A DNA stretch of 60,118 nucleotides, counting the filler, from Hausera hauseri (Eukaryota), in assembly GCA_046269625.1 (NCBI GenBank). It is 9 parts of 9 records of this genome, joined end to end, with 100 filler letters (N's around TTAATTAATTAA, not from the genome) between each part and the next. Parts side by side here need not be neighbours in the genome. Positions count along the whole stretch, not along the records: positions 6,740 to 17,866 come from JBJURY010122206.1; 8 more parts are not named here. One strand, written 5' to 3'. The position numbers and the translations under genes are program-made. The notes below the pieces were generated by a model that was given only the letters and a program-made list of their open reading frames with translations, had not been told where the DNA came from and did not search any database. Each line of letters starts with the position of its first letter. Position 1 is the first letter of the stretch. This document shows, piece after piece, positions 1,415 to 59,320 of this stretch.

Positions 1415-4400
1415 GCTACAACTTCTTCCTTTCCATTTTTGTTAATATAGTGTAGTTGGCGTAACTTTGGTTACTTCGTACTGTCCTCTGCCTGTACGGG
1501 TCAGTTTTAATGAGTTGCCTTTTTTGGATACTGGATAATGCACGTAAACCCAATTTTATTGTTCTAAGTCATGCGGTTTCGCTTCCTTGTCACTGTTTTT
1601 TAACTGCTCCTGGTACTCTTGAGATAATTCCTTGACGATCTCCCAACACTTTCGCAATCGCGTTTCTAACACTTTTGCAAAATTTTGTTCTAAATCTTCG
1701 GGACTGACTGAGTGTGGCGTCATTCCTAGGTCCGTGGGCAACACGGATTCACGTCCATACATAATAAAGAATGGCGTAAATCCCGTAGCTGTATGTGGTG
1801 TGGTATTAATTGCAAATTGAGTTCCTTCTAAAAATTCGTCCCAGTCTTTTTGGTCCTTAGCCACTTCTGTCGACAGTATACGTATGACAGTAGCATTTAT
1901 CCGTTTGACCATTCCATTATACTGAGGATGATTTGCAGTAGTCGTTAGTCGTTCGATTTCAAATATATTGGTGATTTTCTCAATTAATTCACTTGGAAAA
2001 TTTCTTCCTCGATCTGTGAGTATCTGGTCTAGGACCCGTATCGGAAAATAATTCTTCTCACTACTATTTCTGCTAAAGTATCGGCCTTTTGATCGATTAA
2101 TGTTATCAACTCGACGAAATCAATAGACGTCAAAATATATTTATTGTTCTTGTGAGTCGTAGGAAGAGGTTCTATGATATCCATTGACATGGCTTGCATG
2201 GGCCTATCGGGTACATCAATTGGTTTTAACTCGGCCATGTAATTTTTCGTCTTATTTTGCTTAGTTGCGCATACTTCACAAGCATTTACTCAATTTTTCA
2301 CATCAATATAGATACGCGGCCAAAAGTATTTATTCATTATTCTTTCTAGTGTTTTCTTCTAGGACATATGTCCGGCTAAGTACGAGTCATGTTCTGACAT
2401 CAGCACTTCGGTTTGTAAGCCTTTTGAAATAACTATCAATTTCCTTCCTTTTCGCTCGTACTATAAAATATCTTCATCGCTCTTGTCGTTTAAAACGCAA
2501 TATTTATGTCCGTATTTGTGTAAATGTTTCTTTAGCTGTCGTCCTCTTGGTATGACATCCTTCTTAGCAAATTCTATAATCTGCTGGATGACCTTATCCT
2601 TTCTTTGTTCTGTTGAAATTTTAATGGCATTATCTGTCGCTAAAGCGCGTTGGCGGTCTATTATTTCTTCAAGATGACTCTTCCTCATTACAGTGATTGC
2701 GTTTGTTTTCGTCTTTAATCTCGATAGTGCATCTGCGTCTACATGTCTGTTTCCCGGCTTATATTGGAATTCAATATTATATCTCGATATTTCTTCGATC
2801 CATATATTGACTCTACATGTCGGGTTATTTGCTCGGCCTTTCAAGGTCGTAACGGCCTTGTGATCAGTGACGATTATGATTTTCTGCCCGTATACGTAAA
2901 AGTTGAAGTGGCGAAGTGCCTCTTTTACATCTAGAGTTTCCAATTCGGTAACAGAATAGTTTTTCTCGGCCTTCTTCAAGGAACGTTCTCCATAAGCAAT
3001 CGGGTGCTCTAATTCTTCATCTTCTCTTTTCTGTGCTAGTTCATAACCAATGCCTGCTTTACTGGCATCTGTCTTGATTATAAAAGGTAAGTTAAAATCT
3101 GGATACCGTAAAACGGGTTCGATTGTTAATATCTTTTTCATCTCATCAAAAGCTTTCTGTTCGACGTCCGTCCATTTCCATTTAATTCCTTTTTTAAGTA
3201 GACAGTATAAAGGTGCGTTTATCTTCGAATTATCCAGCACAGGTTGCGTAGTAACCGCATAACCCTAGCCAGTGCCTTAATTCTTTTTGGTTTTGTGGTT
3301 CCATGCAATCTGATATTTTATTTAATAACGATTTATCTGGTTTCGGTCCTCCTTCTCCAGCTATGTGGCCAAGGTAGGACACAGCATTCTGAGCCCATTT
3401 GCATTTTTTGGATTTAACTTTAATCCGGCTTGTTCCAGTCTCATCAGTGTGTGTCCCTTAAGTGTTCCTTTTCGGTCCTTGATGCTATCATTACGTCATC
3501 TAAGTACGCAAAATCATGATCCAATCCCATTTGCATTTTGTTCATCATTCTTGTAAATATGGCTGGTCCGGTAGTAATACCGAACGGCATGACGTTAAAT
3601 TTGTAAACATCATCGTGTGTTTTGTATGCTATCTTATAACGATCTTCATCTTCAATCTCTCCTTGCCAGTGTCCGGATTGAAATTCCAGAGTGGTAAACC
3701 ATTTGGCTCCTGAGAGTATGTCTAAAGCATCTTTTACTGACGGTAATGGAAAGGAATCTTTCATCATAAGGTTATTTAATGCTCTGTAGTCAATACAAAA
3801 TCGATGTTTTGTGGTCCCTTTCTTCTTAACCATGAGAATTGGTGAATACCAAGATCTATAGCTTGGCCTAATTATATCGGCCCTAAGCATTCGTTCGACT
3901 TCCTTCGTTATTTTGGGTCTCAGTGAATGTAGTGGGGCATACCATTTCGGCATCTTCTGGTCTTTTAAATCTATTTTCTCGTTCGATTCTGGCTTTTTCT
4001 TGAGTGGAATAGTTAGTTTTAATGCTTTCGCTCTACCGATATCTTATTCGTCCTTAGCAATACTCAATTTATATCGGCATAATAATTCGCAGAATCGAAA
4101 ATAATACTCAGGTGAAAACATAGTTTCGAAATGAGGTGAAAATTCGACATACTTGTAAGGCTTTTCTTCGATAGTTATTGACGATACTCTATACGTGTCT
4201 CCTAAAGTAGTATAAGCATGGAGCTTGACAGGAGTTTGCGCGTTTTCAGCTATTCTGATTGGTACTCGACCGGAGTGTACTCTTGTTAATACATTGCTGA
4301 GTAATATATTCGAATCTAACGTATCTCTTGGTTCAAAATATACTGGTTGATCGTCATCTTGCTGTATCTGGGCACAAATTATCATTTCTGTTCTTGGTGG

Positions 4401-4973
4401 AATGTCTTCATCTACGGGTATCCATACCTCTCCGAGTTTTCTATCCTTAGCGTTTTTCACACCTTTATTTGGCCTGATTTTTATTAGCTTCTCTGTTTGT
4501 AAATCAATTGTTATATTTGACAGTCTCTTCAGTAGATCACATCCTAAAACTACGTCATCAGTTAATTGTTCCATAACTGCAAACTCATGATGGAAAAATT
4601 TTCCAGCTATTTGAACTTCTGAGTTCCATTTAAATATTGGTTTTGATATTTGGCCAAAAGCTCCTGTACTTCCTGGATCCTTCGTAAAAGGCGGGTATAA
4701 TTGACCTCTCAGTGTTTGATGTATTGAATCATTTTTGATGTAAGACATCTCAGATCCTGTATCGATTAAGACATAAACTTCCCAATCTTCGATAGTGATT
4801 TTGGCGAAAGGTCTTCCTTCTATCGCTGTCCCGAAACAGTTTGGTGTATCCTTTGAGCGTTTCAGTGCCGATATTTTATGTCCATTGATTCGGGTTTCGG
4901 GTGAGGATACTATATTCTCCGATAGGTGTCTTAATTCTTCGTTTGGATATAATTCGTTATTTTCTATGTGCAA
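1415..4973 (-). mobile_element. pol: Degenerate Ty3/Gypsy pol (PR-RT-RNaseH-IN), lineage A
   Basis: Protease VLIDTGSEMSYI (4044-4973). RT RFCIDYRALN, VMPFG, AYLDD (3444-3953). RNase H KTDASKAGIG, VTDHKA, DADALSR (2461-3240). Integrase HHCC remnant, MSMDII, TTPHTATGFTPFFIMYGR and a GPY/F-like tail (about 1415-2400). Interrupted by stops and frameshifts. Confidence 0.93.
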
Positions 4974-4996
4974 CTCTTCCGCTTCGTGTGTACTAA

Positions 4997-6639
4997 TTAA
5001 TGGTTCTCGATTGTTAGTGTGTAATTATTCTGGAAGATTTTTAACCTTAAATTGTCCCAAACCGTTGATCTAGTTTCTATGTTCCGAGGTTCTCTCGGAG
5101 AATACAACATCTTTGGACCATCTGTGTATTGTCGGTAACACATTTTCCGTAGGATCCCGTAACGTTTCGTTCCTTCATAAGGATCTTTTACATTAATTGT
5201 TCTTTTATAGATTTCCGTCTGATATGAACTGATTGATCGTTTGTCACAGTCTTCATAAGTTGGAGCGGTGGAAGGTAACATAGGTAGTGGTGCTTTAATA
5301 ACAGAATACGCCTTATATTTATTTATTCCTGAAAGTACTTCTTCTCCCTTAGTCTCGTCATCATATGAATCGCTTCTTCGTGTCTTATGCTTTATAAACT
5401 TCCGCCTTCGCAAAAACATAGGTCTCCTTCTATCTTTACGGTTGTGATATCCGACGTGACGTTCTACGCCTGATATCCGTCTGTTTTCGTCGTATGCATT
5501 TAAGAATTTTCCAAAGGGTGTCATGATCGCAGTTAAAATCATGCAAGAAAATCCAGTTAACGTAAATATTTCATTCCCATTAATTACGGCTTGGATAACG
5601 GCCTTGATCATTTGTATCAGAACATATATAGCTAAGAATCCGGATGTGGTTTGTCCGAAAATTAAAAATCTTTCCCAAATTTTGTAGAGTATTTCTGTGG
5701 TTACTCGCTGATAATGATTTACGCCAAGTAGAGATTCCCATTTAGCCTGGTATAGTGTATCATCTACTACAGAAGCTATGGCTCGGTTTAATTAATGTGT
5801 TCGCTGTCTCGGAAAAGCGAGAAATTGTCTAAAAGCCTCAATTTCCTTCGGCCTGTATATACCTTTCGATGAAATATCTTGAAATTTATCGTCTGTAATT
5901 CCTTTTGCGAGATTTGTTCCTGTCAATTTATTTGGAACGGCAATAATACCTCCATTTGGCAAATTAATCCAGTCTGTTTCACTTTGTCTAAACATGGGTT
6001 CTCCTAGGCTTGCCTTACAATTCTTAAGGATAGACGGTTGGGTAGCGTTATGCAGTAATATTCTTGTTGGCGGTGTAGCTAATCTCGGAATATTTTGGTA
6101 AATAACGGGAAGTTCCTGAATGCAACGTTTTTCTTCCACGTTGATGGGTACATCTCTCTTTTCGCATTCATAGGTTAGCAATACTTCGCCCGTTACCCGA
6201 CCGAAAATTCCTTCTCTCATTGGAATTATTGGAAAAGCCAATTCTGGGTTTGCATATATCAGAGCCATTTTAGTTCTCATGATTTCAGTATCCAATTTGC
6301 AGTCATTCATTATCATCTTGTGATATAATTCCGTTATTCCAATTTGTACTTTATAGTAGAAGTAATCATCCTTACTTTTCAAGTAATCTTCGATACGTAC
6401 ATTTTGTGTTTCTAGATTATACGTTTTTGCACTTATTTACGTTTCTGCTACGAAAAACGCCTCACAGTTTGTAGCAAACATCACTACATCACAGCGAGAA
6501 ATCATCTCTTTTTTAATAAATTTCAATCCATGAAGATCCAAAATTAATATAGTAGGTGTAGAGTGTTTAGATACATCCTCGCGTGTCCTCGAATTGGTCT
6601 TTGATTTGTCCACATATCGCTTCCCTGTAGTCTCATTAA
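4997..6639 (-). pseudogene. Chuvirus-like (class III, gB-type) envelope glycoprotein, C-terminal part, truncated at contig end
   Basis: One frame with two internal TAA stops links 6639 to ORFs 5792-6382 and 4997-5611. Motifs NVRIEDYLKSKDDYFYY, NP...GIFGRVTGEVLLTYEC, CIQELPVIY, PPTRILL, KGIY, then KIWERFLIFGQTTSGFLAIYVLIQMIKAVIQAVING and a second hydrophobic stretch. Order and spacing match chuviral glycoproteins as I recall them. Confidence 0.75.
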
Positions 6640-6739
6640 NNNNNNNNNNNNNNNNNNNNNNNNNNNNNNNNNNNNNNNNNNNNTTAATTAATTAANNNNN
6701 NNNNNNNNNNNNNNNNNNNNNNNNNNNNNNNNNNNNNNN
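6640..6739. other. Artificial contig linker N44-TTAATTAATTAA-N44
   Basis: Identical 100-nt spacer with stops in all frames. It also occurs at 17867-17966, 22968-23067, 30043-30142, 34787-34886, 39236-39335, 45038-45137 and 52605-52704. Confidence 0.98.
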
Positions 6740-7489
6740 TGCGATTTCACCATCAATATTCGTGTAAATGGCTTCGAGAAAATAATTCACCTTGATCGCA
6801 TTTAACTCCTGTACTGAGTCCTCCAGAATACCAGCGATTTCGGGTTTGTGATTTCCCATAAACTGGTTAATATTCCTGGTTTTTGCAGCGTGTTGTTGCG
6901 GTTTAATTGTATATTCGCGTACTCTTTGACTAAAGGCATTTCTGTTTGCTACTCTTTTCCGTGGTGCTTTTTCGTGGTTGAGTTTAGTTGATCCTTCTCC
7001 CTTGCTTTTTTGAAACTTTGTTGTGTCATTTGATGTTGAAGGGATTGGTAGTGTTTCTGCTGCTGTTGTTGCATTGGTCATCATCATGTTGATTGATTCG
7101 TTTAAAATTTCGCGTTTTCTTCTCGACTGAAATTGACCTAGGTGTGGTCCATATTTATGTAGAAATTCCCCGTATGTTGTTCTTTCGGACGTTTGGCGTT
7201 GGGAACAGACATAATATTGGTTTCCGTAATGTTTAATGCCATAGTACTACTGTCCGCTTGGCATGAGTTTGAACGACTGACATAATGATGACCATGATGC
7301 ATTTGGTGTGGATGATATTTGATCTAGTTTATTTGATGATGATATTTGCACTAATATTTCCCTTTTGCTTATATCTTGAAATTGATTGATATGTTCCTTA
7401 TTTTGGGCATAAAACTCCATGTATGGTATGTCGTTTAGAGATCGACATACTGGACATATATATCCTTTATTTGATTGATATTTTCCCAT
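6740..7489 (-). pseudogene. Possible N-terminal fragment of a Polinton/adintovirus-type DNA polymerase B ORF
   Basis: Cys pair (CPVC), then NAFSQRVREYTI...INQFM....EIAGILEDSVQELNAIKVNYFLEAIY, a pattern seen at the N-terminus of invertebrate Polinton-type PolB ORFs. The catalytic region would lie beyond the contig end. Confidence 0.4.
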
Positions 7490-8750
7490 TTTTGATGATA
7501 CATCTTTAGATCATCATGTTGCGTATTACTGCAATATTTGGTATACGTTTCACACTAAAAATTCTTTTTACATTTATCAAATGGAGAAATTAATCTTACT
7601 TTGAAAATTGTAAAACGTCTTAGCTACTGTATAATAATAATAATTGATTTTGTTTCCTTATTATATATGTATTTAACACACACATTTTATGGCCTTATAT
7701 TACCTTTTAATTAATCTTTAATGCGTGTGTAGGATAAAAATCGATGTACTTTAAAAGACATCCATAAAACTTAAAAAATAATCGATATTTTTCGAAGGTA
7801 TTTGTCTAAAACAGCATAAAAGTTCATGTGTTCAAAGTTCACATGTACATCGAAAATTCGTTTTCCTCTTCTGTACGTTGATGGAAATGCATAAAAACTT
7901 TCCGACGCACATTATCCTACGCAGCAAAAGATGACCGATCGATCGAACCCGGTCACAATGAATTTCGATGAAAAAGTATTTCGGTTTCCAAAGGGTATAC
8001 CTTTGACAATTTTCGATGTTTTCCATCGTTGTTCCGTTCGGGAATGGGTTATTTCTATTCGGATACCATTATCGGATAGCCCACGTCTTGGGCTTTCATT
8101 TACTGTGCTACTCGACGCAGGCCATCTTCATCAGTGCACACACACGGGTATCTGTAACGTCATCGGTGCATCGTGCACCCGTCTTTCCGGTGCCGTTTGG
8201 CTATTCACAGGCCCACTGTTTTGGGACCATCAACCGTTGGTCGCCAACGTTTCCCACTTCCCCACAAACCATATGCGGGTTCTGGATCACTTTTTTGCCT
8301 GAACTGCTTTCTTCCACCAAGCATCCATTCGACTTCATTCCTTTGCCATTTGATGCGTCTTCCGTGCTCCATCATTCCTATGCGCCACACATTACCGTGC
8401 ACCACTTCCTTCTAACATCCATATTTTTGTGCATTTCTCCTGCTTCCGTGGTGCACCGTGCACCGGTGCACGTGTGTTTTTTTTGGAATCTCCATGCCGG
8501 AATCTGCCTGGCCGGTGCGAGTGTGCGCATCAAGCACGCTTCGTATTGGATGCAGGGGGACGGAGAAGGGGGCCGGAATGGGTGATCCAGAACCCGAATT
8601 TTTATACTACTGTTGTCGTGTGGCGGTCTGGACTCGTTCTGTGACTAGTTCTGCGACCCGAGGGTCGCCTCGCCGGGGGTCTTGGCGCTCCCGCGCCTGT
8701 TGCGGCGCATTATACTCCCAACATATTGAACGATCATTTAACCATTTTCA

Positions 8751-8960
8751 TCGTTTTTAAATAAACATATTCATACACACACCGGAAATTACAAAACATT
8801 AGGGCAACATATATACACCTCAATATGCAACGACGTCCATCTGTCTGGCTTTTCTCTATTTCTGAATGGACTCATTATTCATCCCGACGATCTGCTATGC
8901 TCTTTTAAATCACATTCTTCATCTCTCTATCTCAATCTAATTCCTAAACTTCGTGGTGGC
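8751..8960 (+). CDS. Ubiquitin-like domain ending KLRGG, in frame with Gag
   Basis: Stop-free frame: NKHIHTHTGNYKTLGQHIYTSICNDVHLSGFSLFLNGLIIHPDDLLCSFKSHSSSLYLNLIPKLRGG|SDP, continuing into Gag. It is not in the ORF track because there is no upstream start codon in frame. Confidence 0.7.
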
Positions 8961-9997
8961 TCTGACCCCAATTTTGAGGAGATAAAAAAATCCCCAAACA
9001 TAACATTTGTTTCTCCAACTCCATCTTCTTTCTGGCATTTTCAGTGTGTAGACTTTTTCTTTGATAATCAAAACTCTTGCAGAAAATGGGTAGATTTCCA
9101 TGCAAAGTGGCTAGCCTCACATAAAATCACTGATTCGTTTCAAAAGGCCAACGGTCTACTTCTCCATCTGCCACCCAATATAAAATCCGGCATAACTAAT
9201 CTTTCTGACATCTTTAGTCATTTTGACCCATACAAATTACTACTTGACACCATAACCACATCATCCGAGCCTTCATTAGACTCAATATTACAAAAATACT
9301 TCAACGAAAACGCTCTTGACCAGCAAAAGCCCTCAGAATTTCTTCGCATCTCACTTTCTCAATTAAACTCACTAGAAGTAAACCAACAAGATAACGCGGA
9401 TCTTCTTCGACGTTATTTCTTATCATCCTTGCCAATCTAAATCCGCGCACTCCTTACTTTTGTGGAGAATTCTACGTCATTCGACAAACTGGCACAACTT
9501 GCGGACAAATGTTACGAAACTTTTCATAACAATAATGCACATAAACCGATTTCAGCTCTGCAAGTAATGCAATCACCAACAATAGTTGCACATCTACAAT
9601 AAGCAAACTCATCAAACAACGAGAACAGTATAGTCTATCAAATTCAAAATCTGCAAGCCGAAAATGCGGCAATACATTAAGCTATATCGGCCATCTCTAG
9701 CAAAATGGACGCTTTGTCTCTACCGTGTCGCGCTCGGTTTAGCGCAGATCGAAGCAGACAGTCGTCTGCAAACTCTAGACACGGCCAGTCACCTTCGAGA
9801 CAAATGGTGTGCTATTATTACACCAAGTTCAATCGAAATGCCAAAAAATGCTGTATAGGCTGCAGATTCTATACGCAGTGTTTCCAATCATACGATGCGG
9901 TCTGCATCTTTCACAGCAAGTTTAAAGACAGTGCAGAACGCTGCTTACCTAGGTGTAAGTTTTACACACAGAAAACTTCAACATTTTCATATATTCT

Positions 9998-10045
9998 AAA
10001 AAACGCCTAAAGCCGCCAGAAATTACGGCAAATTCTGGCAAAGGC
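9998..10045 (+). promoter_or_regulatory. -1 ribosomal frameshift signal at the gag/pol junction
   Basis: A_AAA_AAC at 9998-10004, then GCCGCCAGAAATT...AATTCTGGC stem. The same layout occurs at 43727 (+) and 57019-57025 (-). Confidence 0.75.
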
Positions 10046-13000
10046 CATTTTTTCCGTTTTGACTGCCGTACTCCTACCAATAGCGTTTTCGTATTGGATG
10101 CTGCACTCACATCTTTTCCTCACCACACAAAATTTATGATCGATTCAGGTTCAGCTGCTTCATTACTACCTTTATCTTTCACATCACTAAAAATGCTCCC
10201 TACATCTACTATACTCTTCACCGCAAATGGGCAAGCATTACGTATTTTTGGTGCCGCAGAAATGTCTTTCACCCTGCCACATTTTTTTGATGTCTTTCAA
10301 TGGAAGTTCATTGCTTCAAATATTAAAACACCAATTTTAGGGCCTGATGTTTTATCGCACTACAACATACTAGATGATTGCAAGCAGCATCGTGTGATTA
10401 AAAGTACAATCAATCATACAAAATCACAAAATATTGCACCACTTGCCGCACAGTTGGCTGTAGCTCCAAAATCTATATTAAAGAAATCTTTTATTAAATT
10501 AGATAAATTACATGTTCGTAACTCCGACTGTGACGCTTTCATTCATACAGTAACAACAAAAACAAGTTCCAACACCGACGCAACCTCTCACCTCACCTCC
10601 CCATTAATGCAACTAGAAACAACTCTTCGTGACTACATCATAATTTCTTGTCCTAGAGCATTAAAGAAAAACCAAAATTTCAAGTCTGCTTTTACGACGT
10701 ACCATCACATCGTCACTGAACACCAAACAGAAGGTTAGGCCACTTTCTCCTCGCAGACGCAAAGCTGTGGAATCAGAGTTCAAAGAATTAGAAAAGGCAG
10801 GAATTATAAGACGATCAAAGTCACCTTGGGCCTTACCTCTACACGTAGTGCCCAAGAAGGATGGTACTTTCAGGCCCTGTGGCGATTATCGCCAATTAAA
10901 CACCATTACGGTAATGGACGCATATCCATTACGGCTTATCAGCGATATCTTACACAGACTCAATGGCAACACCATATTTTTGTCCATCGATCTTCATAAA
11001 ACCTACCATCAGATACCTATCTTATCTGCTGACATACAGAAAACAGCTGTGTCAACACCTTTTGGCCTTTTTGAGTATGTTTTCATGACCTTTGGTCTGC
11101 GCAGCACTTCTCAAACATTTCAAAGGCACAATTCTTGCTGGTATAAACTTTGAATTCCCTTACATATATGACATTCTCATAGCTTCGTCATCTCCTAAAC
11201 AATATGCAGAGCGCTTACGCATAGTTTTCCAACGCCTTCACTAAAATAATTTAGAAGTAAATCTCGCCAAATGTTCTTTTTTCCAACACAAGATCTATTT
11301 CCTTGGTCATGTCATCACCAAATTTAGCCTCTCTACTCAGCAATACCGCATAACTCAACTTAAGAACATCAAATTGCCACGAAAAACAACTGAAATGCGC
11401 TCGTTTCTTGGCACACTCCAATTTGTTCACAAATACGTGCCACACTGTTCTGAATTAACCGCACAGTTTGCCTTTTTATAGTCTGGAAAGAAGAAACAAT
11501 TAATTCACTGCACTCCCTAATTTGTCAACCAGTTTGACCATTTACGTGAAGGTTTAAAAACTATCGAAAGTCTAGTATACCCTAAGACTGACGCAGAGCC
11601 GATATTAACCATATATGCCTCTACCACAGCAGTTGGCGCAACACTGCATGAAATTTCCAATGGCGTCAACGAGCCTCTGGAATTTTATTCGCGGAAACTT
11701 ACATCACCAGAAAGTCGTTACTCAACTTTCGACAGAGAGCTCCTAGCTATAGTATTAGCTCTAAAACATCTCTCACATTTGCTCATTGCCAGGTCTTTTA
11801 CGATCCAAACTCACCACAAACCTCTTATTCACATCGTGGATACGAGAACTCCTTTATCTCGACAAGAACGTCACATATCGTACTTGTCGACATTCGATTT
11901 TAAAATGGTACATATTGCAGGCACTGACAATTTGGTTGCCAATTTTTTGTCGAGATCCGTTAACATCATTGGAGTCACTCCCATTTTCTCAAAAGCAGTG
12001 CTTCAGCAAAATGTACCAGCATAGAAAATTCTTAAGTCTTTTAAATGGCACCAAATCATCGACGGAATAGCCTATGATACTTCTAAACCCGGTACTCACA
12101 AACCAATTTTGTCTTCACATTTGCAGAAAACTGCATTTCATAACGTACATTCTCTTCATCATCCGGGTGCCAAAGCAACCTTTTGTCTTCTGCAACGTAG
12201 CGTTATATGATCATCCATAAGATCAGACATACATGTATGGGTTAAGGAATGCGTGGCATGCCAAAAATTTAAAACTCACAAGCATCTGAAGTCACCATTA
12301 TATCACTTTCCCTGTACGTCGAGTTTTGAATCCGCTCATATAGACCTAGTCGGTCCTTTTTGTCCTGAAAACGGCCATCAATTCATACTCACAATGATTG
12401 AATTTTCTTCTCGATGGTCAAAAGCCATTCCATTACGTTCCATTAATACTATCGCTGAGGTTTTCATCAAAACGTGGATCAGCAGATTTGGCTGCCATCG
12501 TTTCATAATCACGGACCAAGGTCCACAATTCAAGTCATATCTCTTTAAATCTCTAGTCAATCGCTTGGTGATTAAACATATACACACTTCTCCATATTAT
12601 CCCCAAGCGAGCGGTGAACTAGAAAGATTCCACCACACAATGAAGACCTCACTTAAAATCCTTACTGAATCACACAGCAACTGGATAGCTCTTGTACCTC
12701 TTGTCCTGTTTGGATGGAGAAACACACCCTCCACCACCACGGGTTGTGCACCAGCTGAAGCATTGTTTGGAACACCGATTCGAGCACTTTTTATGTTAAC
12801 TGAACTGAACGGTACACCAACAGACGAACTGATTCAAAATGTCCAAGATCACTTCGTTACACTAAACAAAGAATCATTTTGCAAAATAGTAAATTATATC
12901 AAATCAAATATACCAAATGATTTGTATACTGCCAAGTTTGTCTGACTTCGAAATCCTTCACCTGGTGGTTTCCAACCACGATACGTTGGGCCATTCAAAC

Positions 13001-13733
13001 TCCTTTCTTTATCGTCTCGCACAGTTAAAATTCCTAAAAGCGGTAAAGAACAAACTGTACCCATTACAAATCTAAAACCTGCTTTCTTTGTGGATACTGT
13101 CCTCATGATACACAAAACAACCCCAACTCCACTTGCACTTTTCTCGATTCTTTTGTTTCTACGCCGTTTCTTGCTAAATCAACAAATCATCAACCACAAT
13201 CTGATCTAATTCCCACTTTTCTTTCTAATCTTTCCACCCCTACTTCCAATTCTTTATCTGTTACTTTTCATTTCTCATATTCTACAGCTAACGTCCCATC
13301 CACTATTTCAATTTCATGATTTCATGCTTCTCTCGTCTCAATTCCTACCCCTCTCTTCTCATCTTCCAACTCTACTTCACATTCTCCACTTTTACTTCTC
13401 ACTCTTCACTTTCCATTTCTCATTCCTCACCCTCTTCCTCCATTTCTGCTTCAATTAATCGTTCATCACAACTTTCACTTGCCTCAACAGAAACAACACC
13501 AAACAATCAACCCAAAAATACGACAAAGCTTTCACCCCTAAGTACATCTCTACAAACAAACACACCACATGAAAACAGAACACTCAGTTACTTTCAGTAA
13601 GTACAGTAGAGAGCAAAATATGAACAAAGTACAACGCCTAGTACAAACAAAAATCGAGTAGAATACAAATTCTTTTTCCTTTTTGCGATTTTTCTCTTTA
13701 TATTTTCGCTCTGTATTATAGTGCCATTTTTAC

Positions 13734-13751
13734 GGGGAGGGGGTAGTGTGG
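13734..13751 (+). promoter_or_regulatory. Polypurine tract and start of 3' LTR (TGTGG at 13747)
   Basis: GGGGAGGGGGTAG directly followed by TGTGG, downstream of integrase and a pyrimidine-rich 3' region. Confidence 0.75.
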
Positions 13752-14849
13752 TGCCGCGGTTGCGGGCGTTGCCACCACCTACCACAGGCGTCTGGCGGCT
13801 GGGTGCCTTTTGGACCGGTGTTCCACTCGTCCTAATTTTAGCCAGCCGACTCTCATCCGCATGGCAGCCATCCAAGAATCGAACCGAATACAGAAAGATT
13901 TCACGAACTCATTGGAGATCGGTTTCTCAGGATGATTAAAAAAGCGAAATATTTTTGAGTCAGTTAGAAACACATAAATGATGATTACGAAAGTTGATGC
14001 GTTACAATTTTCACGTCCAGAAACTAGTCTTAGTCCAATAAAGAAATAGCCATAAAAATGAAGAAAGAATCGCCAATTAAAAACAGTAAAAGTTCAATTA
14101 AGGCCGAAAAGAATCAAGGATATGTCAGCCATGATTCCAGTTTCTGAATGATATCAAACCGAACAGGAATTCGAGAGTCCGAATAAGCAAAGAAAATTCG
14201 TCGAAACTCTATCGAATTGCTACCCTTTTCTGATTTACGGAGGTCATTCTTGTTTCCATTATTAAGCCTGTCAAGAAAAATGAAGTTGTGGATGAATTGG
14301 AAAATGTTTTCTCTATCACTTTACCCGATTTTGCGGCTAAATATTTTGCATGTGATCGATCAATGGTTTGTTTTACTTTAACAATTCATTTTAAAATTTG
14401 TTGCTTCGTTTTAAATTAGTGCTGATATTCAATCTGTTTACGACATATTGAACGTGTTTTAATTCCTTTTTCCGTCAATGCATAAAAAGGATCTAAAAGG
14501 AAAATATGATCAAAAGAATTTGCGAATTCATTATTTAAAAGTTTTGAATAGGTAACACAGACAATGGCCTATAAGAATTTGTCAAATCTCTATCGGAATA
14601 TTTTGCTGCAACCGTTTCTGTGGGATGTACCACCTAGAAATTTTTTAAACAATACTTGATACCGCGATTTTATTTTTCAAAATTGAATCATTAAAGGAAC
14701 AACACGAAAGTAACAATCAGCACAATATCGTACACGTCTAGAACACTTTCATCTTTAGAGAAAGAATACTGCGTTACGACAAAGGAACTGTTGGCATTGC
14801 AAGAGTCTATTCCACATTTTAAACAGAATCTATATGACAACACTTCATG

Positions 14850-16000
14850 GCTAGGACAAATCATAAAACATTAGTATATATGAAGACCGCTACAAAATCA
14901 ATAACATTGCAATTCCAGTCGTGGTTGCAAAAAATAAGATAGATTTTAATTTCACACTAGAATATAGGAATGGCGAACAACATGGAAAAGCAGATGGATT
15001 GTAGTGGTTGTATGAGTATTTGTGTGCTTAGTGCCAAGCAAGACACGCTGATCCTAGGCAAACAAAGTCACGTGCAAAGCACATTAATTCCATATTGGTT
15101 AGGTCAACCTTGAAATGGATAAAAGATGAACAAAAAATGTGCAGAAAGACAACAAGTAAAATATCAGTTAGACGGCTCAACGGTTATAAACGTACATTGT
15201 CGAAAGAGATTCTCAATATGATCACTAAATTGGAAATGACAAACTGTTTCCTAGTATATAAATATCAGAACTACAGACTACCAGTAATTCCAAAAATGTG
15301 CGAAAAGATTTCATCTGGAAAATACATGTGGATCTATTCCATCTAGATATGCAGAAGACAAAACGATATATTCAACATCACTTCGCAATTTCGGATCTAA
15401 CGAAATAAGTAGAGGATGTCATTGGAAAATCTAAAGAATGCTTACATCGGAAAATCCCAATGTAAAAGACGAAAGAGAAGTTCATTCCTATTAAGAGTGA
15501 TAATTTTCTGGACCAACTGGTAGTAGACATTTCATATGTCGGAGACAAAGATAGCATGTATACATAAATGTTGATTATTATAGCTCAGTTTTTATAGCTA
15601 GTGAGTTTAACAGAAATAAGGAGGCTGAAAGAAGAAACAGTTATCGAGTGCATGCTGGTGAAATGGATTTACAGATTCTGAAAACCGAAGTCAATCTTGA
15701 CCGACAACGGAAAGTGTTTTTCGGGAAGCAAGTTTGGAGAGTTTTGCAAAGTATGGAATTAAACAAATATCCAGCAATCCGTTTCAACATCAATCTAACG
15801 GTTTGGCAGAAAGGGTCAGCCGAACTGTTCGGGATATGTTGGTAACCAGTGCTGCAGGAAAGTTGGGCAAAGCATGCTGGAAGTCACTACCGGAAAGCAC
15901 AACCGGACACTCACCGTTTGAAATAATTTTTAAACGAGAAATTAACTTGCGCGCAGCTGGAGGAGTCACAAGACAGACCGATAGCGGCAAACTGACACAA
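14850..16000 (+). mobile_element. Highly degraded Gypsy RNaseH/integrase remnant
   Basis: LEYRNGEQHGKADGL near 14960-15000 and ISSNPFQHQSNGLAERVSRTVRDML...TTGHSPFEIIF in 15734-16060. Confidence 0.7.
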
Positions 16001-16247
16001 AGTATTACAAGACGAGTATATGTATCACCAGGGTTATCGGCAGGCCCCTCAAATTTTTAAAAATATTTTCACTTGGTTGTCTCCACCACCTCTCGTTCAT
16101 GAAATTTTTTTTAATTGGAAAAACCCACCTATAATCCTGGTAATACAACTACTCACAAAACTTCAATAAAAATAACAAAAATAGTAATAATAAAATAATA
16201 ATATTGAAAAATAGTAAAAATATTAAAATAATAGAAATAGATATAAA

Positions 16248-16251
16248 AATA

Positions 16252-16287
<36 letters not shown>
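16248..16287. repeat. (AAT)n microsatellite in an AT-rich low-complexity tract
   Basis: Direct AAT tandem run. Confidence 0.9.
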
Positions 16288-16288
<1 letters not shown>

Positions 16289-16334
16289 TAATAAAAATAA
16301 TATAAAATTAAAATTTGAAAATTCAGATTCTGGC

Positions 16335-16613
16335 TCATCCCTTGCAGCCAATGTGAAGCGTGCTCGTATAATAGTATTTCATATGCCCTCGAATTTCGCG
16401 AAAGTACCAAAAAATAATATATCCCAGTTGATCAAGGAAATTAAGCAAATCTCTAATATCATAAGTAATTGCCCTCATATCTGAATATTCCTGGGGTAAC
16501 TTCAGAGGTTCTTCAAATATTTTTAGAATTCCTTCTAAACGTTGATGGATACTATCATAATATTCCCAAATATGAGGATCGATGTCTTTCACAAATGTTC
16601 GAAGTAATAAATC
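16335..16613 (-). pseudogene. ERH: Enhancer of rudimentary (ERH)-like sequence, diverged
   Basis: WEYYDSIHQRLEGILKIFEEPLK...AITYDIRDLLNFLDQL aligns with ERH [23 protein letters not shown]...SITYDISQLFDFIDDL. The C-terminus drifts, possibly by frameshift, and the 5' end abuts a 10-N gap. Confidence 0.7.
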
Positions 16614-17038
16614 NNNNNNNNNNTGAATACAACAATGCGATTTAAGTCGCAAAGTAGAGTTGAACTGCAACTAAATAACAAATTTTCGTAAATCCCAACA
16701 AAATTGTTCTATCACCGATATCAGTTAAATGAGATACTAATTACCAAATCAAAGTGATTTTACCAAATCAGTTCAAATCGTTGTGAAGAAACTGAAATTG
16801 AAACGAAAATTTTTTGAACAATATGGTAGAAATAAATTTTTTAAATTCAAAAAGTGTAAATAAATTTATTGAAACAATAAAACAAAATTTTTTAAAGCAA
16901 CAGTCCTGTTATTGAAACTAATAAATACTAACAATAAATTCAAAACCTGATAATTAATCGATAAGTATTTTTTCTAATGTACAAAAATAAATCGTCTATG
17001 TACAAAATATGAAATCGACAAAAGCTATCGAAAAACGT

Positions 17039-17866
17039 TCAGAAACGCCCAATAGAGAACATTGATTGTGGCTCTTTGGTAGTTGGACCTTTCTTACTAT
17101 GGAACTTTTGATTTGATGGTAAACGTGAAAAGAATGAGTGACTAAGTGCTTCGGCAAAAGTGATTCTTGATTTTGGATTATAGTCTAACATTCGAGAAAT
17201 TAGATCGAAAAGATCGATAGTGTCAACATTTTCGGGTTTACAGTAATTACCGAGTCTACTACAATTTTTTCTAACAAATTTAGCATTCTTTTCACTAGGA
17301 AACCAAAGTAGACTACCATCGTCATGAAAATAGCCCTTTAAAGTAGTTTTAGTCATTTTATACGGAATTCGGACAATTATTCGATTCATCATTGCCAGAT
17401 GTTCGCGGTTGTCGTGAGCCTGGAATAAAGTATGACCCGTAAATAATTCAAATAGTATACAGCCAATTGAACAGACATCACATGGTTGATACCAGCCTAA
17501 TTCAAGTATAACTTCCAGAGAACAATAATGTCTGGTTGACACAACACTTGAATGTTTTTCATGATTGAATGTTTCCGAACCAAAGTTGATCCAACGGATT
17601 TCTGATGATTTTACCACATTATACTGTTTGGATTTTGACGACGAAATAGCATTGTAATCAGAATTGACAAACAAAATATTTTCCGGTTTTAGATCAGTAT
17701 TGGTTAGATTATTTTCGTGTAGGAAATTTACAGCTAAACACGTCTGATATCCGATGTGACGAACATGTTCAATGGGATAAGGAATATAATTATTTTCTTT
17801 TAAAACGGTAGATACACTGAGACCGAGTAGTTGAAAGGAAATACATATATGTCCATTGTAATTGAA
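17039..17866 (-). CDS. CLK: CLK/LAMMER dual-specificity kinase, C-terminal part, with altered catalytic motifs
   Basis: Open frame from the contig end: FNYNGHICISFQLLGLS...NTDLKPENILF...INFGS...STRHYCSLEVILELGW...HDNREHLAMMNRI. Confidence 0.88.
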   Translation of the reverse strand, partial: FNYNGHICISFQLLGLSVSTVLKENNYIPYPIEHVRHIGYQTCLAVNFLHENNLTNTDLKPENILFVNSDYNAISSSKSKQYNVVKSSEIRWINFGSETFNHEKHSSVVSTRHYCSLEVILELGWYQPCDVCSIGCILFELFTGHTLFQAHDNREHLAMMNRIIVRIPYKMTKTTLKGYFHDDGSLLWFPSEKNAKFVRKNCSRLGNYCKPENVDTIDLFDLISRMLDYNPKSRITFAEALSHSFFSRLPSNQKFHSKKGPTTKEPQSMFSIGRF

Positions 17867-17984
17867 NNNNNNNNNNNNNNNNNNNNNNNNNNNNNNNNNN
17901 NNNNNNNNNNTTAATTAATTAANNNNNNNNNNNNNNNNNNNNNNNNNNNNNNNNNNNNNNNNNNNNAATTATAATGATTACCCC

Positions 17985-20900
17985 TTGTTAATACCACTAT
18001 TAGTTAAAGTATATGGTAAGTATGTTAATGCGGAACTTGATACTACTACTCCGTTGACTCGTATAAATCTGCGATTATATAGACGAATTACACATTATAT
18101 ACCCGAAGCGTGTGGGAAATTAGATCTAACTATAGGTTATATAGATGTTACCTGTTATGCCAACCCACAAGAGTCATATTCTGATCTTATTATTGGTTTA
18201 GATGTACTATACAAACTAACAGGAGCGGAACTCAAAGTCATCGGCAGATCAATTGTATTCAACTGCGAAGGTTACCAGGATACCAAACCTCAACCCAATG
18301 ATCAATGGTGGTTTGCGCCGGGAGAAGAGACTGTTCCACCCTTACTAAATTATGTTACATTGAAGCAACTAAGTGAACAAAATACGGAGTCTACATTAGC
18401 ACGAAAAATAACCCAAACACGAGTAATGGAAATACCTACAGTTAACACTCCATCTCCGATTTTCGGGAGTCCTTTTAAGTTACCCACAATAACCCTGTTG
18501 ACGCTGATATTGCTTATAATATTTGGATGTGCGGATGCCCAACCAACACATATGACAACAACTACAAATGCGTGGAGCAGTACAATCCTGTTATTGTCAA
18601 TATTTGCTTACTATATGTTTAATAGCCGTATAGTAACGGACGATGAGGAAGTAGATAATTCTTCCTCGAATGATCAAACAAGAAAACAAGTACCCTTACC
18701 TTCGGTAATAGATATGGACACTAGTCCAGTAAATAGTATGGTGAGAGTACCACAGAAATTACCACGAAATTCGTTTCAAGATGTACCAAGACCTATATCA
18801 ACAATGACAATATATCCTGATTTAATGGAAATGCAGACTACAAGCAATATGCAACCACCCGTGAGTTATATCGCCTTAAGTAAGAAGTTGGAAGAAGCTG
18901 AAGAAAATATTAAACGATTAAGAGAGGAAATTGAAAAACATCAACAAGAAAGAAGTCCAAAATTCCCTGAGTATAACGACATTAAGCTACGAAAAATAGA
19001 CCACACTATGCAAGCACAACGTAAAGAAATTAAACCAAATGAACAGATTTATTTCGAATTACCTCAACAGAAAGGAGGAACTTACCACCACTCCCATTAA
19101 CTAGAGAGGCAGCTAATCGACACATGTTGGAAAATTTTCTGTTAGCTATACCAGAACGCATAAATCACGCACAACAATTACTCAAAGGACCTATAAATAG
19201 TGTAACAGAATTAAAAGACTTCCTTAGCAAATACCACGAAAAGTGTGGAATAACAGATGAACAATATAAACCCATAATAAAGCTAATTTGTGAGGATCTA
19301 AAATTAGATTTTAATGTCTTAACTGCCCTGGATAAATTTTTCCTGAAAATAAGTTGCGAAGAAGTGTATTACACGATTCCTGATCTGGCTAGTCCAGGAA
19401 AACTGCAGTATCATGATTATGTAGCACTAGTCGAGCAATAAAAATTTTTAAACATCATAACATAAATATAGGAGGAAGAGAACTTATTAACGGGGTAGAA
19501 GAAGTTAAACGAGTTTGGAATGGAAAAATGGGACAGCCTCTAGATAGTAATCTTCCCCCTGAACAGTGGACGAAAATAGATCGACTACAATTCGCGGGGA
19601 ATAGCATTAAATATATGGACGAGATAGCTAACGAAACAAGACCAATGCACATACAAGATCTTCAAGAAAAAGATAAAAAACGAGAATCATCAGGCATCAA
19701 AAGTTACTCCACATTCTCCCTGGGAACGTTGTTCCTTATGGGAATATGTTTACTCTCCATGATTAATGCAACAGAGGCAATTGAGACCACACCTCATCGC
19801 TCTAATTCCTCATGGACTTCATTGTTGTTATGGTTGTTTTCGTTGTTAATGATGAGCAAATTCTTTAATAGCAATGATGATGAATCTTATGAACGCCTCT
19901 CCAAACGCAAAGAACCAATAAAAGTTATAAATTCTTTGAATAATACACTCGATGACAAAAAACAAGAAGGAACCCATATTGTTAACCAGGAAACGGATGA
20001 AATTTCAAAACAAGATACGGAAACCATGTCTAGTTGTATATCTACTAATATACCGATACAAAAACAATCGGAATACTTGAGACAATCACCCCTAGGGTTC
20101 CCCTATGAGTATCAATCAATACACGATTGCATAAGTTACGATAAATTAGCAAACGATTTAAGGGAAATATGTGGAATAAGGTTGCTATCAGCCCAAACAT
20201 TTACTCCAGTACAATTGATCCAATATATTCATACCATTAATTGGAAATTAAGTAGACCTGATTTGGTTGATTACGATGTTAATGATAATGGGGAACAGTG
20301 GACCATAATGAAATGCTCAAACCATTTACTAAGATACGAACCTCTGTTCATTGGCAGTAAACAAGAACGAAAATTCCTTACTCATTATTTCGGAAAGGAA
20401 ATCCCACGAATCTCTACTAGTAATACACTTACTTTATTACAGCGAACGTCTCCAGTAAGCAGTAAGTATGTAGATCAAGAGAAGGCTAAAGAAATAGGAG
20501 AAAGATGTGTGGGACTGTTCCAAAATTTTGGAGGAGAACTGGTGAATGTAAGAACGTCCAATGCGTTTATAGTTAATTGTTGGTTGACTTATACATTGAT
20601 GACAATTAAGGACGAATTAAAACAGGAAGAGTTAGAAGAAATAGAGGAAGATGAAATCCGAATATTGTGGAATATTTATCTGTACAGAGACATACATACA
20701 TCACTAACTGAGGAGGATAGAGAAGAAATTAACCAATTGGAACAAGTAAATGCTAGGGGGACGACAGGCAGGATAAATGCATTATGTTATCGATTACTGT
20801 TCTGCCTACTAGATGAAAATCATCAGAAAGTCGAAATGTATAAAAAGGAACGAGATGATGTAATAAATAAGTGCCAATCGAAACTAGATGAAAAGAGAAG

Positions 20901-29100: not shown

Positions 29101-29622
29101 ACTTCTTTCTTTGTCTGGCTTCTCAGTTGGAGTTATGTCTTTTGATGTTCTTCTAGTTTTTCGATTTTGTATTGTCTCATCTCTACTTCGCTTGTTCCGT
29201 TCTACTTTTGCTTGATAAAGCACTTGTTGCTATATGGCCTTCCTTGCCACATTTATAACATCGAATACGTTTCTCTACTTCATGTATAGCTCTTCTGTGT
29301 TCATGTCGTTTCTCTCTGTAGCGATCGTGTGTCGACATGCCATTTCGGTCTATAGTGATCAACATCCATGTGTTCTTCACTTCTATCATCAAACTTATCT
29401 CTTCCTAGTCTGATATTGATACGTTTCCCAAAGTTTTCTTCATCGATAGCATTTTGAATTGCCTCTTGAATAGTCATTGGTTCTTCTTTCATTAGCTTGA
29501 TCTTGATGCGTGTGTTTAGTAAACCGTCGATAACAATTGGAATTAGCGACTCCCAATTTCTTCTGACATGACATCGTGACCAACATAAGCACCCTCCGCC
29601 ATATTGAGAAGCTTGTCACCAT

Positions 29623-30042
29623 TGTGCCCGCTATTGGTATCAGTGGAGATCAGAAACGTAGCCTCGACGAACTCCGCTGGTGAAAGTTAGACTGTACGGT
29701 CATCCAAAACCCTCCTAGTAGAGCTCCAACGAATATATGCCTTCTTCGTTGATAAAACCACGTAGAAAAATATAATTGCTGTAGAATTACACATAAGGCT
29801 GGAACTGGCCTCTAAAAATGAGCATTCTGCTCCAGCAAAAAAATAACGACCTCTCACATCGAAGGCCAAACGAAAAATGCGTGCCGTTCCTAAGTTTCAA
29901 ATACCTTTGTAGGTAAAACCCGAGACACCACTTACTTTTCTTGATTACTTGTCATTAATCTGGTACTCCCAAAAACAATTTCCGTTTTCCGTGCGTGGGT
30001 GTTCATTTACGGTTTTTCCGTGGTTACTATTAGTTTATTAAT
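29623..30042 (-). repeat. 5' LTR (partial), followed by putative PBS TGGTGACAAG at 29612-29621
   Basis: Shares 75 nt with the 23068 copy. Minus strand ends ...GCACA, then A, then TGG. Confidence 0.65.
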
Positions 30043-30377: not shown

Positions 30378-30490
30378 AACAACAACCAGACAGCTGACAA
30401 CCAGACAACAACAACAACAACAACCAGACAACAACAACCACACAACAACCAGACAACAACAACCAGACAACAACAACCAGACAACAACAG
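30378..30490 (+). repeat. CAA/CAACCAGA simple tandem repeat
   Basis: Repeated ACAACAACCAG units. Confidence 0.85.
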
Positions 30491-42424: not shown

Positions 42425-42643
42425 CCATTCCACCTCTACCTTTTTGTTAATAATAACCTAATGCAAACCGTATATGTCACATAACGTATGGAGACATTAC
42501 AGTTATACGCTCTCATTTATAATACCGCCGCCTAAACTGATTTCTACCTAACTCACAACGGTTTCATTTTAACTAACCGCCCACACATCATGGTCCCACA
42601 TTACCATCTATGTATACACGTCAATCCTAGAATCCGCGGTGGT
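42425..42643 (+). pseudogene. Ubiquitin-like domain ending RIRGG, in frame with Gag
   Basis: PFHLYLFVNNNLMQTVYVT*RMETLQLYALIYNTAA*TDFYLTHNGFILTNRPHIMVPHYHLCIHVNPRIRGG|MISPP, continuing into Gag ORF 42590-43018. Confidence 0.65.
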
Positions 42644-56900: not shown

Positions 56901-58299
56901 TCGCTGCATAAAAGTGCAGATTTTAACAGAAATACTGCAGAGGCGGTGTTGAAACGGCCCGAAGATTGAGCGATATTGCCTGCGCCAGAATGTGTCATAA
57001 CATCTGGCGGCATTATTAGTTTTTTGGTGGATTTGGAGGAAAGGAAGAAGAGGAAGAAAAGCTAGGAGATTTTTTGTTATAATGTATACAACCAGGCACA
57101 CATGATCTGGCCTGTGACTGATATTTGTTGTGGTATATACAAATAGAGTTATTTACAGCGTATCACTCACTAAAGAATCGACAGCCCAAGAAACATTTCC
57201 TTGCTTCCTTTCAAAAACGCATGTGGTAGAAACAAGTCATGCGTTCGCCAGGTGAAATGGACCGAGAAGAGTGCATTGAAATGCTTCGCTTTCGTGAACG
57301 TCTGGTTTCACTTCGTTGAGGCCCATTAAGACTACTTAGTTGGCTAGTAATGACCAAGATCGATTGTTGTAGCATGTCAAACTGTTGCTGCATCATTTGC
57401 AACTGTTGAGTAAAGAGTGTCGTATCTGTAGTTGGAGCACACGTGGTTGCAGCAGCAACAGGGAGAGAACTGTTAGTATGAAGAATCTCAAAAGATTTGT
57501 CAGCCATTAATACCAGTTTTTCAATTGCAGTGGATTCGTCAACAACGGTCAGCAAGGCTCTGATTGAGGTGGGCAAAGACGATAAGAAATAACGGCGAAT
57601 TAAATCCGCGTTATTCGTAGGGGTCACTCCTAGCGCGCTGAGCTGTAGAATGGCTGTTTGGAGAAAGTCGGGTGGCTTTTGGTTCCCTATTGCGTGTAAA
57701 TTAAAATACTTTTGTATTATGTTGTCAATCGATGGATCCGTGACATGCAGTACAGCTTCGCAGAGTGTCTCGTAAGGCGTAGGGGATTGTAGCAGCTCGA
57801 AAATATTATTAATTTGCTGCTTGACGTTGGCAGGAATAAGAATTAAAAGGCTATTGACTCGCACAAAAGAATCTGTAATGTTGTTCGATTTTAGCCACTG
57901 CTGGTAAAATTGGAGCCATGGCTTGCGGGAGTTGTTTTTATCAAGGAAGAATTTAACACAAGGTAAATTTAACGAACCTCGTGACTGTTGGGAGTGTGGC
58001 AAACGATATATGTTGCCTGTATTCGTAAATTTATCATCCTAGCAGGATGAATTTGTATCCGATCCACCCCGGAGGCGAAATTTGAGCATAAGATGGATAA
58101 CTGAACGTTCATGGCATACGAAAGACAAAAGTGAGTCGGCGGCATGTACAGTGATACATTAATGTGTGAAATAGAAATTGGCAGTGTCGAGTGAGGAGGA
58201 TAGAGAGGTGTACAGTAGTTGCGCCGTGAAATTGAGTGGAGCCTTAATGGTAGTTATGTGTTTATTGTTATTGAAGATAAGGAAGGAGAGTTGTACGGA
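53950..58299 (-). mobile_element. CsRn1-like Gypsy copy 3 (UBL-gag, -1 frameshift, PR-RT-RH-IN), degenerate
   Basis: Gag about 57016-58062 (KPWLQFYQQWL, DLIRRYFLSSLP, CFYHMRF). AAAAAAC at 57019-57025. Protease FLIDSGAAFSLLP. RT HPYIDD. RNase H TTDAS, TDHKP. Integrase HLDLVGP, YHPQANGLLERFH. Confidence 0.93.
58063..58299 (-). pseudogene. Ubiquitin-like domain ending FRLRGG, in frame with Gag
   Basis: SVQLSFLIFNNNKHITTIKAPLNFTAQLLYTSLSSSLDTANFYFTH*CITVHAADSLLSFVCHERSVIHLMLKFRLRGG|SD. Same frame as ORFs 58159-59013 and 57211-58002. Confidence 0.75.
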
Positions 58300-59320
58300 A
58301 GCAATACCAGGAGAATGGTAAAATTCAAAAGAAGCTTGTGCGGTTTGCTTCCGTGTTAACAAGAGATATGGGCGTGCAGCCGGGATAACGGTGGCAAACG
58401 ATGGTTTGAACGTATGAAACAGATGAACACTAGTAATTACTTGGATAGTAGTCCCCACAAGGCATCCCATTCTTTTGTCTCTGAATCTACTTGATTGTGT
58501 TTCATGTCGGAAAAAGATGTGCGACAGCATAAATGTACAATGGCTTATCCAATCGTCAGTCGTTTGACGTAATGCAGTAAATGTATTTTGGTAAATGTGG
58601 ACTTGTTCAGTAATCGACTTGACGTGTATTACGAGAAAGCCGCTACACCTTTCCACGTGGAATAGCATTATCGGATTGCAAGTTTGGTGTTTCATTATAA
58701 TGTCTTTAAACAATTGTTTCTGTTTCAAAACTGTTGACATGCGCATGGATGTGGTGAGGACGCTGATATTTTTTACTAATTTAGTCGCAAAATAGCGAAA
58801 ATTCACACAAAAACTACTATCGTGAATACACGACAAAATAAGGTCTTGTATTTGAGGAATATGGTGACAAAGTGAAATTCTTATTAGTTTATATTGACCT
58901 GTTGACATGCTATCTGTGTAGGAGTATTTTGACTCAGATGCATAGGTTGCAATTGCGCTGCTCTCAGTTTTCAGATTAGATTTTGACACAACCACTTTAA
59001 CACCATGCAGCATATTCGGTCTATTTGTGTTCAGTCAGAACAATGTAATAGAAATCTGGATGTCTGTGTTGTTCTGATTCTACAGGTGCATCCCATTGGT
59101 AAGTCGAATGCTGTACACCTATACTAGAAAAGTTCGCAAATGAAGGGACATTAGACACAAATAATTTGGTCTTTATCAGCGGTCGTTTTAAGTTAACATA
59201 CATTTGCTGATCATCAGAGAGCAATTCTATATCATCTGGGGAATTCTGGTGAATTGGTGTCGAGTAAATGGTCACGATTTTTTGCAGTGTCTCTTCAGAT
59301 TGTCGTTTGCGATTGAACAA
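58159..59320 (-). CDS. Unknown leader ORFs upstream of UBL-Gag
   Basis: ORF 58159-59013 (284 aa) is in frame with UBL-Gag. ORF 59021-59320 is in frame with 59351-60115. No recognisable motif. Confidence 0.45.

Follow-up and report, generated by a model that had tools for sequence, protein, structure and literature searches.

A ubiquitin-like domain ending in diglycine precedes Gag in a CsRn1-like lineage of Ty3/gypsy retrotransposons and may act as an internal processing signal

The proteins of LTR retrotransposons are believed to be matured by an aspartic protease that the element itself encodes. In the cellular fusions UBA52/eL40, UBA80/eS31 and FUBI-eS30, a ubiquitin-like domain (UBL) ending in Gly-Gly is joined to a structural protein, from which deubiquitinases (DUBs) remove it. 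The yeast element Ty1 retains on its Gag the N-terminal part whose coding sequence overlies the primer site. In Saccharomyces Ty1 the primer site lies inside the GAG reading frame (available part of PMC4974528). In cytopathic BVDV (Osloss, CP1, CP Rit), a captured ubiquitin inside the polyprotein is cut by the host and gives the next protein an exact N-terminus (available parts of PMC8310069 and PMC13517609); in CP Rit, ubiquitin lacking MQI is cut by host hydrolases and frees NS3 (same part of PMC8310069). Among retrotransposons, the CsRn1 clade (CsRn1, PwRn1, AgCR), according to the available part of PMC2582038, has a CX2HX9CX3C knuckle, a DSG/DTG protease, the order PR-RT-RH-IN, a -1 overlapped gag/pol and a tRNA-Trp primer site, and the bivalve element Steamer has a 12-base tRNA-Leu primer site, TGGTGTCAGAAG (available part of PMC8905726). 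The word "ubiquitin" occurs 0 times in the main texts of PMC2582038 and PMC8905726, and 0 times in the available text of PMC6338049, PMC5408684 and PMC8220671. A literature search, with most subscription journals and repeat databases outside its scope, found no report of ubiquitin fused to a retrotransposon Gag.

The locus described here lies in a window of 60,118 nucleotides from Hausera hauseri (the whole stretch that was analysed, along which positions are counted), whose contigs are separated by spacers of 44 N, TTAATTAATTAA and 44 N; neighbours across spacers are not real neighbours. The UBL-Gag junction sits within the piece 6740-17866. Taken whole, the reading that we consider fairly probable is that of a CsRn1-like gypsy element that uses ubiquitin as an internal processing signal, with a leader initiated in the LTR and a cut made by the host. 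The features concerned are the following.

7728..8723, strand not assigned: terminal part of another repeat, high in copy number, whose ends are LTR-like, TGTAGG ... CCCAACA (depth step, composition change, termini)
8724..8741, plus strand: remnant directly 5' of the UBL (in-frame stops at 8727 and 8739)
8742..8960, plus strand: ubiquitin-like (beta-grasp) domain with a KLRGG end (AF2 model, fold searches, family and relatives-only profiles)
8961..10010, plus strand: Gag, with a DUF7041-type capsid and two CX2HX9CX3C knuckles (capsid fold, motifs; DUF7041 in relatives)
9998..10004, plus strand: A AAA AAC heptamer in the Gag/Pol overlap (sequence; also present at the corresponding position in 11 of the 11 loci listed)
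9959..12945, plus strand: decayed pol in several pieces, with protease (DSG), RT, RNase H and integrase (Pfam, ORF list)
13734..13746, plus strand: polypurine tract (sequence; same pattern, GGGGGCTA followed by TGTGGTG, in relatives)
42434..42643, plus strand: element 2, a UBL ending RIRGG, then Met and Gag, with two stops in the UBL (relatives-only profile)
58063..59034, minus strand: element 3, an open stretch of 247 codons that continues in frame into a UBL with an FRLRGG end (relatives-only profile, shuffles)

The junction is read in a frame of 232 open codons (8742-9440, plus strand; TAA at 9438-9440) that runs through LNLIPKLRGG, whose GG ends at 8960, into Gag; the boundary itself reads ...SLYLNLIPKLRGG/SDPNF..., the slash marking the joint. 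The frame holds 0 ATG, as the preliminary description had stated, and it opens nine bases before position 8751, from which that description had followed it through KLRGG to a TAA at about 9438. In-frame stops 5' of 8742 lie at 8739, 8727, 8646 and 8583, and the first in-frame ATG 3' of the GG, at 9567, is past the stop at 9438. A Met-free stretch of 232 residues is not unusual here; the matching residues of 12 relatives contain 0-3 Met, and zero in two of them.

An AlphaFold model of the frame (mean pLDDT 80.8) has a beta-grasp at residues 6-73, with pLDDT mostly 63-86, and a capsid at 95-232. The beta-grasp matches ISG15 (Z 8.0, rmsd 2.2, 67 aligned), with ubiquitin, FAT10, SUMO and FUBI all within 1 Z, and the retroviral-type capsid fold matches PEG10 (Z 8.2, rmsd 3.5, 78 aligned) and dArc1 (Z 8.1, rmsd 7.2, 129 aligned); the ESM Atlas lead for the UBL was 0.85. 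Foldseek alone gave no match to the model at E 0.001 or better, and the fold claim is carried by ranks and the VIA search. The domain at 8742-8960 is thus modelled as folding like a ubiquitin domain, and the remaining frame like a dArc/PEG10-type capsid. This copy lacks a Met at the start of the UBL, and its first strand is a few residues shorter than in close relatives. As a single sequence, the window UBL-Gag found no homologue (0 of 305 candidates) and no Pfam match, and a UBL profile of the three window copies had no match in PDB. The family UBL profile aligns to ubiquitin over the entire domain, at about 3e-10 per domain, and also matches ubiquitin-ribosomal protein and FUBI-eS30 fusion chains.

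A relatives-only profile, based on 32 database sequences and no window sequences, ranked the three window copies far above all else in the window: 23.3 bits for the copy at 8742..8960 (iE 1.2e-6) vs 29.1 and 31.1 for the other two, the next window match reaching 6.3. The in-frame fusion of a UBL to Gag, proposed earlier, is borne out by the fold model and the family profile. The further view that this is the best-preserved UBL copy holds for stop codons, as the other window copies have two stops and one within the UBL, but not for the profile score, which is the lowest of the three. The same profile marked 37 of 150 relatives, and after removal of 14 members, ubiquitin-like scorers among them, it still recovered P0030 and P0133 at iE about 2e-7; therefore the diverged and near-canonical forms are one family. 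P0030 matches Pfam ubiquitin at 3.7e-23 and is identical to ubiquitin at 54 of 74 positions by manual count, and loci L001, L002, L003 and L007 are also near-canonical (Pfam 5.5e-19 to 1.4e-24); most UBLs are just 11-29% identical to the P0030 domain. Because it is common to three window elements and 37 database proteins, the UBL-GG-Gag junction is more than chance.

Regarding the rest of the element, the window Gag has premature stops at 9438, 9600 and 9678; its knuckle at 9903 is intact and that at 9810 is degenerate, with the His lost. The heptamer at 9998..10004 is a likely -1 frameshift site. Pfam matches in pol are RVT_1 (1.1e-10), RT_RNaseH (3.5e-23) and rve (1.2e-5), the protease being assigned by its DSG motif only; the order PR-RT-RH-IN is that of Ty3/gypsy, and intact relatives agree. 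A probable 3' LTR starts with TGTGGTG at 13747, its end not located. The termini that mark an LTR element are, in the window copy, the polypurine tract and the 3' LTR start, and in relatives a polypurine tract, one collapsed LTR and a primer site. The copy's own 5' LTR, primer site and start codon were not found in its contig. The string "FLRGGG" at 13718 is just the polypurine tract read as protein. From these features, the window element reads as a dead, decayed Ty3/gypsy copy from a CsRn1-like animal lineage. It shares with the CsRn1 clade the knuckle, the DSG/DTG protease, the gene order and the -1 overlap, whereas the knuckle is doubled here (tandem in 11 of the 11 loci listed) and a ubiquitin domain with an LTR-initiated leader stands before Gag. 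Because the primer site, as read in relatives, is that of tRNA-Leu(CAA), identical to that of Steamer, and not of tRNA-Trp, we file it as CsRn1-like rather than as a member. Ty1, in turn, is copia-type and without ubiquitin, while the UBL-Gag elements are Ty3/gypsy.

Two of the three UBL-Gag elements of the window are about 65% identical in pol DNA. In element 3, the UBL (58293-58063, minus strand) has one stop inside, and an opening as long as its 247 codons before the UBL was seen in 0 of 20,000 shuffles. An ATG at 59013 stands just ahead of a degenerate primer-site-like sequence at 59005; no LTR match was found for this element. Its leader matched nothing known, Pfam included, and a second UBL suspected there by eye was not supported by the profile and later comparisons. 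Host-gene pieces noted by eye are an apparent ARMT1-like / NAT10-like chimera and a WD40-like piece at 59354-60118 (minus strand), near element 3, and 40333-41686 (plus strand), near element 2.

A profile of the three window copies found 551 proteins among 1.84 billion, and the best 150 of the 551 were analysed. The UBL is present in 37 of these best 150 Gag relatives, every one ending GG; the relatives are not independent of each other in such counts. In a Gag tree of 137 rows, from which 15 N-terminally truncated matches were dropped, 36 of 39 UBL rows (34 proteins and two window copies) fall in one 41-row branch with modest SH support (81), mostly with doubled CX2HX9CX3C knuckles. Five rows of this branch are without a predicted UBL, and at least P0024 and P0038 resemble late start calls. 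P0054, P0072 and P0076 form a separate group of single-knuckle Gags with UBL-GG (support 99), which may represent a second capture or an early branch. Gags outside the UBL group mostly begin with Met about where the sequence after GG begins within it. The UBL before Gag thus behaves in the tree as a lineage trait. Twenty of the listed matches were traced, to ENA, JGI or Logan assemblies; no relatives were found in viral contigs or in prokaryote genomes.

The LTR anatomy comes from 20 loci, obtained by scanning metagenomes with a single sub-branch other than that of the window elements; for the window's own branch, the backing consists of element 3 and predicted proteins. The 12-base primer site occurs in 14 of the 20 loci, in 12 of them upstream of the UBL on the same stretch, and matches the 3' end of tRNA-Leu(CAA), as taken from a probe in the available part of PMC7997516. 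In 9 of 11 loci, no stop interrupts the Gag frame between a point 90 nt ahead of the primer site and the UBL, vs 0-10 of 5,000 shuffles for each, and L020 is also open from before the primer site to the UBL, which makes 10 of 12 testable loci; in L007 and L016 the frame shifts between primer site and Gag. Of the six loci lacking the site, three (L003, L012 and L014) have a frame that is open right from the contig edge, two (L018 and L019) are interrupted by stops a short way ahead of the UBL and by other breaks, and one (L017) does not extend as far as the UBL. With the polypurine tract as its marker, the LTR start was located in 7 of 10 loci listed; six of these seven have their first in-frame ATG downstream of this start and 94-324 nt upstream of the primer site. 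Ten of 12 loci share a TTTGTTTAAAT-like LTR box, defined after inspection, and in all ten a frame that runs through the primer site begins at the first ATG 3' of this box. The frame in which the primer site is crossed is 0 in six loci, 1 in three and 2 in one. In P0015 and its cluster, L010 and L020, one frame of the primer site contains an ATG (peptide MVSE) that could be a second start.

These leaders are AT-rich, 75-196 codons long and stop-free in the Gag frame only, save for one locus with a second open frame. Leader identity in distant pairs is 22-38% vs 59-82% for Gag, and in the pair L005/L015 dN is 0.191 for the leader, 0.070 for the UBL and 0.021 for Gag, at dS of 0.32, 0.16 and 0.17. 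Constraint rises from leader to UBL to Gag, and the leader resembles a peptide under weak constraint more than a conserved protein. Intact relatives thus support the earlier proposal that translation begins further upstream, and Gag would be made from a longer precursor that starts there. The opposite arrangement, an ATG right after RGG with non-coding sequence upstream, was not found: Met follows GG in 6 of 37 relatives, and the upstream sequence is coding in 10 of 12 testable loci.

Linear UBL fusions are substrates of DUBs, which process them inefficiently when Pro follows the site. The GG tail is present in 37 of 37 proteins, 12 of the 12 loci listed and all three window copies, counts with some circularity, as GG was the criterion in choosing the profile seeds. 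The kept pattern is Arg/Lys, Leu/Ile, x, Gly, Gly, with Leu or Ile two places before GG in 36 of 37 and Arg directly before it in just 11 of 37. After GG, Pro is found in 0 of 37 and a bulky or basic residue in one of 37, the corresponding linker values being 8% and 21%. In 77 of 78 pairs, conservation is lower in the UBL body than in Gag. No DUB-like Pfam domain was found in five intact Pol proteins. The pattern suggests cleavage after GG by a host deubiquitinase; recognition of the diverged UBLs by host DUBs is not assured, because most are only 11-29% identical to P0030 and Arg precedes GG in a minority. In working elements, the ribosome would start at an ATG inside the 5' LTR and translate a leader of roughly 75-250 codons, for which the open frame is observed, across the LTR end, the primer site and the downstream leader RNA. 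The UBL, GG and Gag would follow, with Gag-Pol made by a -1 frameshift at the observed overlap, and a host deubiquitinase would cut after GG, leaving Gag and Gag-Pol with a defined N-terminus. Because such a cut would release Gag, the leader would need only to stay stop-free. In the window copy, the 5' part would have been displaced by another repeat and the remainder decayed. Compared with the ribosomal fusions, in which ubiquitin is N-terminal with its own Met, the domain here is internal, behind a leader; and whereas the BVDV insertions are sporadic, recent and in an RNA virus, here the domain is a deep-lineage trait in mostly far-diverged copies, with cleavage proposed from sequence.

Near-canonical ubiquitin occurs in five members, whose siblings with 53-76% identical Gag carry weak or no Pfam ubiquitin (domains of 20-30% identity), which suggests that host ubiquitin may have been captured anew. 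The fuller combination, in which there is no real 5' UTR, ubiquitin is a host-cut joint periodically captured afresh, perhaps with two origins, and the released piece may act on host ubiquitin, is tentative; we take it seriously without favouring it as a whole.

It is unlikely, though compatible with cleavage, that the released leader-UBL with its free C-terminal GG is a working modifier or decoy, conjugated to host proteins or tying up ubiquitin enzymes; such a role would alter the purpose of the fusion. The complete beta-grasp fold is kept under purifying selection, the R/K-L-x-G-G tail suits E1 as well as DUBs, and rapid divergence of the UBL relative to Gag would fit host conflict, but relaxed selection also yields divergence, the UBL would bear a long unconserved leader, and it lacks a dedicated start codon (two of 32 proteins have Met near position 1; L003 keeps Met). 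More doubtful still is that the UBL remains attached to Gag as an N-terminal domain with a structural or regulatory role, whether matrix-like, chaperoning or a degron that limits Gag. Many of the UBLs are far from ubiquitin, and N-terminal UBL domains left uncut are common; however, these usually lose the GG, which is kept here in 37 of 37 while the body drifts, and each capsid subunit would still carry a leader, although these leaders are unrelated in sequence and length.

Returning to the internal processing signal, the region left of the junction bears on where its leader would begin. The preliminary description had named ORF 8016-8585 as a possible part of the leader before decay. This ORF (8007/8016-8585) is contained in the repeat 7728..8723, on the same strand and in the same frame as UBL-Gag; the right boundary of the repeat lies somewhere about 8640-8723, and the ORF falls in the other repeat under either boundary. 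Depth, which here is summed contig depth from three public runs (X1-X3) and not copy number, is 24,000-44,000 in X1 over 7730-8719 vs 460 over 8720-9049, and at the bin edge 8719/8720 it drops from 24,234 to 460 in X1, from 164 to 10.6 in X2 and from 14.1 to 2.6 in X3. High depth extends leftward to the contig end, and an X3 contig bridging 7081-7826 ties the ORF region to the repeat on its left. We also rejected 7728-8723 as the element's own 5' or solo LTR, as it has no match to 13747-14400 (scores 42 and 42 vs shuffle maxima 42 and 57), and found no similarity between 7730-8719 and the leaders of P0004, P0005, P0169 and element 3. The ORF is probably not the UBL-Gag leader, because read depth in the repeat that contains it is 5-100 times that on the UBL-Gag side.

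That the ORF is the element's own leader, formerly continuous with UBL-Gag, is thus highly improbable. Its shared strand and frame, its 192 open codons (reached in 11 of 3,000 shuffles), the lack of an exact repeat boundary and one X1 contig joining 8637 to 8754, with a short side of just 26 letters, speak for it; the step between adjacent bins (about 50-fold in X1, 15-fold in X2, 5-fold in X3), the X3 link to the left repeat, the missing matches to the 3' LTR and to relatives' leaders, the lack of a tRNA-Leu primer site between ORF and UBL and the four in-frame stops that close the frame between them speak against it. The least probable alternative, in which a non-AUG codon, internal entry or a spliced-on exon provides a start at the UBL or immediately ahead of it and the open leader is incidental, gains from the frequent replacement of ubiquitin Met1 by Ile or Phe and from gene callers having fused host-gene pieces upstream in several proteins, but it leaves the long stop-free leaders, which shuffles almost never give, and the ATG that follows the LTR box (a box defined post hoc) without a role.

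Several further features of the window were observed. ORF 8007-8585 (plus strand), without a Pfam match and longer than shuffles give, may be a product of the other element. On the minus strand of the same high-copy repeat, ORF pieces with a furin-like RRKR site (6692-7510) are possibly a glycoprotein start, with no fusion-family Pfam match, and the minus strand of 7400-8800, tried as integrase, had no Pfam match. A gypsy-type element at 4044-6436 (minus strand) carries a Monjiviricetes (chuvirus-like) fusion glycoprotein gene (Pfam PF24664, 3.6e-24 and 8.1e-15) upstream of its protease and RT pieces, not after them. At 45090-49201 (plus strand), by eye, an integrase continues without a frame break into a long region resembling a membrane protein, after which comes a DEDDh exonuclease-like ORF. 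Long ORFs at 17919-22527 (plus strand) encode hydrophobic segments and a motif resembling that of proteases, and contain an internal repeat of about 490 nt (20331-20815 / 21531-22015). A further host-gene piece, an intronless CLK/Doa kinase by which the host is taken to be an animal, lies at 17042-17863 (minus strand), at most 59% identical to animal kinases among the matches listed, and a tandem array of 21-nt units at 49134-50169.

If ubiquitin is the processing joint of these elements, the first processing step of the lineage would rely on a host deubiquitinase; this would be a host control point, and the element could overlap coding sequence with cis-acting RNA at little cost. UBL-Gag ORFs are mis-called by gene finders, with late starts or joined to neighbouring host genes. 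The family offers dozens of natural, widely diverged UBL-GG substrates for probing DUB recognition, and it would extend the pestivirus trick of ubiquitin insertion from sporadic accidents to a long-kept design.
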